A stretch of 64,000 nucleotides of DNA from a virus: IMG/VR virus record IMGVR_UViG_3300035703_000020, positions 1 through 64,000 of that record. The stretch is one strand, 5' to 3'. A program made the position numbers and the translations under genes. Shown in pieces: positions 35,921-36,215 of this stretch. The notes beneath the pieces were generated by a model, which worked only from the letters and a program-made list of their open reading frames with translations, was not told the DNA's origin and did not search any database. Each line of letters opens with the position of its first letter. The first letter of the stretch is position 1.

Positions 35921-36215
35921 CGTCCGCTAAGACGTAAAACTGGCCGCCCGGTCAACACTTCGGGGCAGTGCCGAACACCTCCACTTACCGCGGCTTGGCA
36001 ATCTCACGAGAAAGCAGTGGGGCATCTCGATGAGGGCGCCAACTTGGGCTCACAACCACGCGGTACCACGGGGGTGAAACAGAATCGACTGGCTGGGCGA
36101 ATGTTTGCAGACGCGAACAACATCGTAGCTTTCGAGCGCGCGACCGTGGCCGCCTAGGCCCATCGCCCGTGACGATACCCGGGAGAGTCTTCCATAGGCT
36201 CTCCCTTTCCTTTTG
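35921..36215 (+). ncRNA. ssrA: Two-piece (circularly permuted) tmRNA
   Basis: T-arm plus CACCTCCA (35959-35983) precedes GGGGGTG (36070-36076), giving G3.U70. Tag frame 36113-36157 encodes ANNIVAFERATVAA*. Outer ends are approximate. Confidence 0.88.
36181..36215 (+). terminator. Intrinsic terminator after the tmRNA coding piece
   Basis: GGGAGAGTCT...AGGCTCTCCC then TTTCCTTTT. Confidence 0.7.

Follow-up and report, generated by a model that had tools for sequence, protein, structure and literature searches.

The source record is a virus of 149,878 bp from IMG/VR (IMGVR_UViG_3300035703_000020) with direct terminal repeats, and the window, i.e. the whole stretch of 64,000 nt analysed here, comprises its first 64 kb. 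With a GC content of about 65%, the record codes for a tail sheath, a portal, a topoisomerase II, an RNA ligase and a gamma-type DNA polymerase, the last of which is closest, among isolates, to that of Synechococcus phage S-CBWM1 (49% identity), followed by those of TIM5-like cyanophages. Judged from its sequence, the record belongs to a myovirus-like phage, with S-CBWM1 as the closest isolate.

Positions 35921-36215 of the window hold a circularly permuted tmRNA gene in the order acceptor piece, 86-nt spacer, coding piece (tag ANNIVAFERATVAA*) and terminator. The gene is located at the end of a tRNA cluster, with tRNA-Asn, tRNA-Thr, tRNA-Val and tRNA-Met upstream and a tRNA-Thr downstream (ARAGORN, Rfam). 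Its features and the adjoining tRNA are as follows:

35847-35919, plus strand: tRNA-Met(CAU), the last tRNA ahead of the tmRNA (ARAGORN; Rfam tRNA 47.8 bits)
35921-35934, plus strand: 5' hairpin of the acceptor piece, a 4-bp stem (35921-35924 with 35931-35934) and a 6-nt loop, found by sequence inspection
35945-35954, plus strand: P2 helix, strand of the acceptor piece, with 36090-36099 as its partner (two-strand fold, 10 standard pairs)
35959-35975, plus strand: T arm with a 5-bp stem and a 7-nt loop starting GGCAG, not UUCGAYU
35976-35983, plus strand: 3' strand of the acceptor stem (35976-35982) and discriminator A73 (35983), CCA being unencoded
35984-36069, plus strand: spacer (intervening segment) of 86 nt, closed by a 7-bp stem
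36070-36089, plus strand: 5' strand of the acceptor stem (36070-36076) and D-loop analogue ending UCGAC, with AG for the usual GG
36090-36099, plus strand: P2 helix, strand of the coding piece (two-strand fold, covariation)
36102-36119, plus strand: resume-codon hairpin with a 7-bp stem (36102-36108 with 36113-36119) and a 4-nt loop (local folds, covariation)
36113-36157, plus strand: tag frame ANNIVAFERATVAA of 14 codons with the stop codon TAG (36155-36157)
36132-36175, plus strand: helix 5, formed between the conserved CCGUGACGA motif and the FER codons with the remaining tag (RNAalifold, pair counts, fold of the window)
36181-36215, plus strand: intrinsic terminator, a 10-bp hairpin with a U run, which ends the coding piece

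The T arm, acceptor strands and tag all lie where a sequence-only reading of this DNA had placed them, and its further observations on the locus held as well: the acceptor halves form seven pairs, all standard, with G3.U70 among them and A73 at 35983; the intervening segment of 86 nt (35984-36069) is closed by its 7-bp stem; and the resume codon, GCG at 36113, lies 43 nt past G1. As this scant room had suggested, pseudoknot 1 is absent, just 13 nt separating P2 from the resume codon. The window thus holds a tRNA-like domain, a T arm with a D-loop analogue, the permuted order with P2 and a tag frame, and a two-strand fold of the predicted pieces reproduces the helices of the family alignment described below. 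The 5' hairpin of the acceptor piece is present in every family member with differing sequences, and likewise in the Rfam cyano_tmRNA model. The tag is of the cyanobacterial (ANNIV) type, with a hydrophobic C-terminus and a final AA, and its stop codon sits in the apical part of helix 5. Pseudoknot 1 is typical of tmRNA, and some reduced tmRNAs have already been accepted (PMC11915505).

The absence of smpB from the window, pointed out by the earlier reading, extends to the entire 149,878-bp record, in which no SmpB gene was found; host SmpB would therefore be needed. Many viral contigs that match tmRNA patterns are attachment-site fragments of a host tmRNA, carried by temperate elements that integrate into ssrA. 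Such an origin is exceedingly improbable here: both halves, the complete tag frame and the terminator are all there, the gene is part of a tRNA cluster in a myovirus-like genome of 150 kb bounded by terminal repeats, its architecture is unlike that of host cyanobacterial tmRNA, and neither an integrase beside the element nor a matching host ssrA 3' end was seen.

Two further features lie close to the gene. Between tRNA-Thr and tRNA-Val, at 35708-35767, is a tRNA-like sequence that lacks the anticodon arm but has the other three (acceptor, D and T), 5 nt standing in place of 17 model positions (Rfam tRNA 40.3 bits). On the other side, a leader at 36216-36416 runs from the tmRNA terminator to a gene at 36417-37043 (signal peptide, phrog_512); it is near-invariant across phages whose downstream protein is just 74-85% identical, shows three hairpin domains with nine compensated pairs (eight sequences) and has no match in Rfam. 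We consider this leader a candidate cis-regulatory RNA.

Standard tools passed over the tmRNA gene. ARAGORN reported no tmRNA in the window, and at gathering thresholds Rfam returned tRNAs only. With relaxed thresholds, alpha_tmRNA (RF01849) matched the tRNA-like domain with 38 bits (local E 3.6e-9; gathering score 50), covering only positions 90-166 of the 355 in the model, and tmRNA_permuted (RF04321) gave 36.3 bits on 35957-36088 (gathering score 47; model positions 34-105) as well as a second match of its model end to the tag region with 14.8 bits. The cyano_tmRNA model (RF01851) reached 10 bits for the window against a gathering score of 70. The check by ARAGORN and the Rfam tmRNA models that the sequence-only reading had proposed was thus borne out by Rfam matches, under their gathering scores, and not by ARAGORN. 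The section of the Rfam models from P2 to the tag is without counterpart in the window. The gene falls outside alpha_tmRNA, given the partial model match, the unencoded CCA and the cyanobacterial-type tag, and outside cyano_tmRNA, since the clade hairpin before the tag and the structured region after it are missing. A covariance model built from 31 homologues scored the window at 67 bits (E 4.8e-14) and gave no match in tmRNA-less relatives. No match to the element was found by blastn against 50,697 phage records, a set that may leave out the source record.

Relatives of the phage place the gene in a lineage. S-CBWM1 carries a full-length permuted tmRNA (NC_048106.1, 23899-24177), unannotated between gp33 and gp34, which scores 123 bits with RF01851 and 72.4 bits with RF04321 and encodes the tag ANKIVAFHRQAVSCA. 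Full-length permuted tmRNAs of S-CAM1 (around NC_020837.1 108674-108942) and S-SSM7 (around NC_015287.1 20984-21286) are also unannotated in their records, the latter region being overlain by a 'hypothetical protein' CDS, SSSM7_025. These three isolates score 109-128 bits with RF01851, and their resume codons follow G1 by 72-91 nt. Among seven IMG/VR contigs with a polymerase 78-92% identical to that of the window, two (G006 and G004, 81-86% identical) carry a permuted tmRNA above the RF04321 threshold (62 and 52.3 bits, respectively), with the short layout of the window and a nearly identical tag; the remaining five are fragments in which no tmRNA match was found. By this homology to tmRNAs of relatives above Rfam thresholds, the earlier claim of a phage-encoded, minimal, permuted two-piece tmRNA was upheld. 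The element is absent from L193, L194 and L195, three relatives by way of the downstream gene. L193, the closest by neighbouring genes, has a protein gene where the tmRNA would be, ahead of the same terminator; the tmRNA is therefore dispensable, and has been gained and lost within the lineage.

A search with a pattern of the tag region retrieved 10 viral contigs and at least 120 metagenome contigs. A tmRNA 5' end lay just upstream in 70 of the 130 matches listed, and parsing gave 62 unique permuted tmRNAs among the matches listed, from marine and freshwater samples. G1 precedes the resume codon by 43-48 nt in 54 of the 62 listed unique sequences and by 64-65 nt in a small group. Most listed members end their tags in AA, even where the codons vary, and all listed members possess the hairpin with a U run. 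Among the matches listed, ARAGORN gave the correct tag for one of the 54 short forms; surveys of phage tmRNA, most of which have relied on this program, would therefore undercount tmRNA in aquatic phages. Two other kinds of pattern were set aside: one made from motifs shared with S-CBWM1 retrieved S-CBWM1 alone, plus chance matches in viral contigs, and general permuted-core patterns retrieved mainly tmRNAs of alpha type from hosts or prophages, with no relation to the window.

When the tag pattern was searched against 185,579 species-representative genomes, genuine tmRNAs were matched only in Pleurocapsales cyanobacteria, all full length. The short form was found on none of the bacterial chromosomes among these genomes, and it occurred there only on two short contigs (4.8 and 9.6 kb) from MAGs. 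These, L472 (CALGUV010000157.1) and L475 (CALGUT010000252.1), carry the phage-type minimal tmRNA in MAGs binned as Microbacteriaceae and Opitutales; phage DNA binned in error is the probable explanation. L425 (VGIO01000035.1), a Calditrichaeota MAG contig of 19.9 kb, is the same sequence as the metagenome contig L314; it matched the tag pattern, and no tmRNA was parsed there. The flanks of the marine member L322 gave no DNA match to isolates and no PHROG matches, and those of L409 encode a phage-type ribonucleotide reductase and sigma factors, so that tag type is the only guide to the hosts of the wider family. Taken across these sequences, the missing pseudoknot 1 is a conserved property of a large family and not a local accident.

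RNAalifold of an alignment of 31 short-spacer members gave a P2 of 10 bp, a T arm of 5 bp, an acceptor stem of 7 bp and a long helix 5. Standard pairs made up 96.1% of the cells in the structure versus 32-46% in slid controls, cells changed on both sides numbered 131 versus 9-19, and the covariation score was 0.472 versus at most 0.088. None of 500 shuffles matched the observed values for paired cells, both-side-change cells, further pair types or covariation score, and one of 500 matched the observed number of pairs changed on both sides. In P2, 8 of 10 pairs show compensatory changes (31 sequences), and the nine pairs of helix 5 are paired in 100%, the inner three being compensated; neither these two helices nor the resume hairpin had been selected by the parser. 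The T stem is paired in 100% of cells with four of five pairs compensated, and G3.U70 is kept in 31 of 31 aligned homologues with acceptor pairs 5-7 compensated, these counts being inflated and partly circular as the parser demanded paired acceptor and T stems.

In local folds of 24 nt around the resume codon, almost every one of the 54 listed short forms shows a small hairpin, the 3' strand of which is the resume codon itself. This codon covaries with an upstream triplet, i.e. CUC with GAG (9/9), GUC with GAC (1/1) and GCA with UGC (6/8), and cross-matches are almost absent. When codons were permuted among the sequences, the observed value of 21, compared with a mean of 5.8, was reached in none of 2000 permutations. 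As judged from folds and codon changes, the site of pseudoknot 1 is occupied by a covarying hairpin with the resume codon, and the design would therefore be P2, resume hairpin, tag, helix 5 and terminator. Since the gene is permuted and the coding piece ends free after the tag, the message would hang from P2 as an open tail. An extra helix, P2b, between AAAC of the acceptor piece and the U-rich stretch before the tag, was considered and dropped; this U/G-rich stretch covaries with the resume codon.

The lack of pseudoknot 1, a resume codon locked in a stem and a phage without smpB could also point to a decoy, the tRNA-like domain of which would sequester host SmpB or sit on stalled ribosomes and thereby block host trans-translation. 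A precedent exists in the TLD-only RNA of mycobacteriophage DS6A, likewise a reduced phage tmRNA derivative (PMC4131195); that RNA has no tag frame, whereas the frame of the window is conserved. We consider a decoy unlikely, since it would need no tag frame, yet frame, stop codon, final AA and helix 5 are conserved in about 60 listed unique sequences, and the variation in tag and helix 5 is synonymous and compensatory.

The element of the window recurs in sequencing runs from other sites. DNA contigs from a wastewater run carry it with 2 differences in 220 nt (about 99% identity), and it is also present in estuary and freshwater runs, one freshwater run containing in addition an L367-type variant with a canonical D loop. 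In the lone RNA run, reads fell on conserved tRNAs only, leaving 35932-36460 uncovered. This recurrence bears on the idea of a gene in decay, left over from a tmRNA of host or S-CBWM1-like origin and stripped of its pseudoknots. Sub-threshold scores in Rfam, the miss by ARAGORN, the atypical T loop of the window and the close relatives L193 and L194 without the element would agree with decay; nevertheless, 54 listed unique sequences of marine and freshwater origin share the reduced layout, covary strongly and keep the frame intact, and the copy of the window type recurs in independent samples with about 99% conservation, which makes a remnant very unlikely.

In our judgement, the phage therefore likely carries at this locus a functional two-piece tmRNA, circularly permuted and of a reduced class without pseudoknots. 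Homology, architecture, covariation, confinement to phage-like contigs and the absence of smpB form the basis of this reading, and from the conservation we infer a function in trans-translation, with processing, charging, tagging and a benefit to the phage as the corresponding steps.

The copy in the window has an unusual history. Its T loop starting GGCAG, combined with AG in the D-loop analogue (family: GG), occurs only in the window, L366 and L405 among the 62 listed members, and in all three both loops differ jointly from those of each one's closest relatives. The sequence-only reading had called this T loop alphaproteobacterial-like. That stands for the loop, which matches the Rfam alpha_tmRNA consensus, the alpha model also scoring best (38 versus 10 for the cyano model), but not for the gene, since its descent is from the cyanophage family and the loop type is found in 3 of 62 listed unique members. 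Compared with L367, identity is 94% in tag, helix 5 and terminator, 77% in the spacer, 62% in the 5' part of the coding piece (68-75% to L366, L358 and L399) and 54% in the acceptor piece (73% to L366). By segment-wise identity, the window element is a mosaic, and the two strands whose mutual pairing is required appear to have been swapped jointly. One wastewater contig, 99% identical elsewhere, has 526 other letters in place of the tRNA-Met (35844-35919), with the right-hand join exactly at 35919, where the tmRNA acceptor piece starts, which suggests modular exchange inside the tRNA cluster.

The spacer takes several forms in the family, i.e. 4-6 nt, a tRNA gene, a long perfect hairpin of 63-64 nt, a hairpin of 53-55 nt or an element of 85-87 nt as in the window. 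The nested tRNA is tRNA-Asp GUC in seven unique sequences (L329, L334, L341, L355, L370, L408 and L420) and tRNA-Thr UGU in one (L303); with a complete tRNA nested in the spacer, tRNA processing alone would part the two pieces. The spacer RNA of the window consists of three stacked helices with an apical loop and a 3' strand that are both invariant; in our model, this strand could pair with the apical loop as a pseudoknot. Compensatory changes were found in 14 of its 19 pairs (14 sequences). A loose pattern for this RNA matched over 120 viral contigs, in 32 of which the spacing is exactly the 25 nt of the window, and the RNA also stands alone within tRNA arrays of other viral contigs, e.g. L503:2221-2309, L530:6800-6888 (minus strand) and L507:7695-7783 (minus strand). 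The spacer RNA had no match in Rfam, and with E values up to 10 allowed, neither the spacer nor the leader downstream matched a self-cleaving ribozyme or riboswitch of Rfam. Going by these occurrences, the window spacer is a member of a widespread family of structured RNAs of about 80 nt, and the spacer would act as a cargo slot for tRNA-Asp, tRNA-Thr or the ~80-nt RNA.

Phage tmRNAs have been on record since mycobacteriophages (PMC4131195). In a survey of 18,146 phage genomes, tmRNA turned up in 402 (Buchholz et al. 2022, PMC9004378); 53 of its 133 unique phage tmRNA forms are two-piece, 50 of those being aquatic, and its Table S1 lists S-CBWM1, S-CAM1, S-CAM3, S-CRM01 and S-SSM7 as permuted (PMC9004378). 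Two-piece tmRNAs are also found in the OM43 phage Melnitz, the pelagimyophages and the Caulobacter phiCbK group (PMC9004378). The 2025 tmRNA database contains 79 phage sequences, and its permuted model spans the tRNA-like domain only (PMC11915505). Since phage two-piece tmRNAs, that of S-CBWM1 included, are already on record (PMC9004378), the novelty that the earlier reading saw in the element was overrated. Within the literature covered by our search, which has many journals outside it, no description of a pseudoknot-free, tag-encoding class of phage tmRNA was found.

The tmRNA of S-CBWM1 resembles that of the window in phage lineage, piece order, acceptor stem sequence, a shared upstream motif, a related tag, the unencoded CCA and a location in or beside a tRNA cluster. 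It differs in having a cyano-type hairpin region before the tag (72 nt from G1 to the resume codon) and a structured region after it, both missing from the window, as well as a canonical T loop and a 17-nt spacer, and it passes Rfam (123 bits) and ARAGORN, none of which applies to the window. A two-piece tmRNA of picocyanobacteria was reportedly described by Gaudin et al. in 2002. This type (RF01851) is likewise permuted, with an ANNIV-type tag ending in AA, an unencoded CCA and a long P2, whereas the window is without the hairpin or pseudoknot from P2 to the tag and without the post-tag pseudoknot, and has other T and D loops. With alphaproteobacterial tmRNA (RF01849), the window shares the GGC-N-G T loop and the matching D-loop analogue; the alpha consensus, in contrast, encodes CCA and has ANDN-type tags, while tag, helix 5, spacer and flanks of the window are those of the cyanophage family. 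Tanner et al. are said to have replaced pseudoknot 1 by a hairpin in E. coli tmRNA mutants in 2006. Those mutants also carry a simple hairpin between P2 and the resume codon, but they are laboratory one-piece constructs, whereas the hairpin of the window is natural and conserved and contains the resume codon. Finally, the tmRNAs of aquatic myophages are phage-encoded and permuted with no phage smpB reported, like that of the window, but are of alpha type with full architecture and are detected by ARAGORN (PMC9004378). The Melnitz tmRNA is coupled to a glutamine riboswitch (PMC9004378), while no Rfam riboswitch was found in the window. The role proposed for these myophage tmRNAs is to keep the hijacked translation machinery running (PMC9004378).

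For the window, the proposed course of events would be as follows. Transcription would probably reach the gene as the final unit of the phage tRNA cluster and stop at the gene's own terminator. Host RNase P would cut at G1 (36070), host tRNA-processing enzymes would trim the 3' end to A73 (35983) and then add CCA, and 3' processing of tRNA-Met(CAU) would define the 5' end of the acceptor piece. Maturation would remove the spacer, and the products, an acceptor piece of about 66 nt and a coding piece of about 145 nt, would stay joined through two helices, the acceptor stem (7 bp) and P2 (10 bp). Host AlaRS would charge the tmRNA via G3.U70 and A73, host SmpB would bring it to stalled ribosomes, and translation would resume at GCG 36113, appending (A)ANNIVAFERATVAA, a Clp-type degron. 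The likely gain is that, during destruction of mRNA by RNases of the phage or host, ribosomes stay available and truncated proteins are removed; ribosome rescue of the phage's own, possibly against host RNase toxins as the sequence-only reading had proposed, is plausible. Several points weigh against a working tmRNA, i.e. the lack of an ARAGORN call, the sub-gathering Rfam scores, the absence of pseudoknot 1, which is important in E. coli tmRNA, a resume codon buried in a 7-bp stem that has to open, T and D loops that are non-canonical for a cyanobacterial host, and the dispensability of the gene as seen in L193.

It is tempting to speculate, although we are somewhat more inclined to doubt than to accept the combination as a whole, that all these features belong together: a phage-specific minimal class in which the pseudoknots are gone and a resume hairpin is present, the spacer is a cargo slot, the halves are exchanged as modules, and alpha-type T and D loops have emerged in, or been brought into, three lineages. 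Elements of this kind are known, while the reduced architecture, the resume hairpin, the spread in uncultured aquatic phages and the RNA-carrying spacer appear to be new.

For the window, the outcome is a gene correctly annotated where standard tools leave a blank. The nested tRNAs and the uncurated structured RNA add to the view that permuted tmRNA genes carry other genes. The family retains the acceptor stem, T arm, D-loop analogue, P2, resume hairpin, tag and helix 5, and nothing more, and thereby represents a natural experiment on the parts that a tmRNA cannot do without. Provided that they work, these RNAs would be the smallest tag-encoding tmRNAs in nature, and would offer a natural test of the purpose of the pseudoknots.
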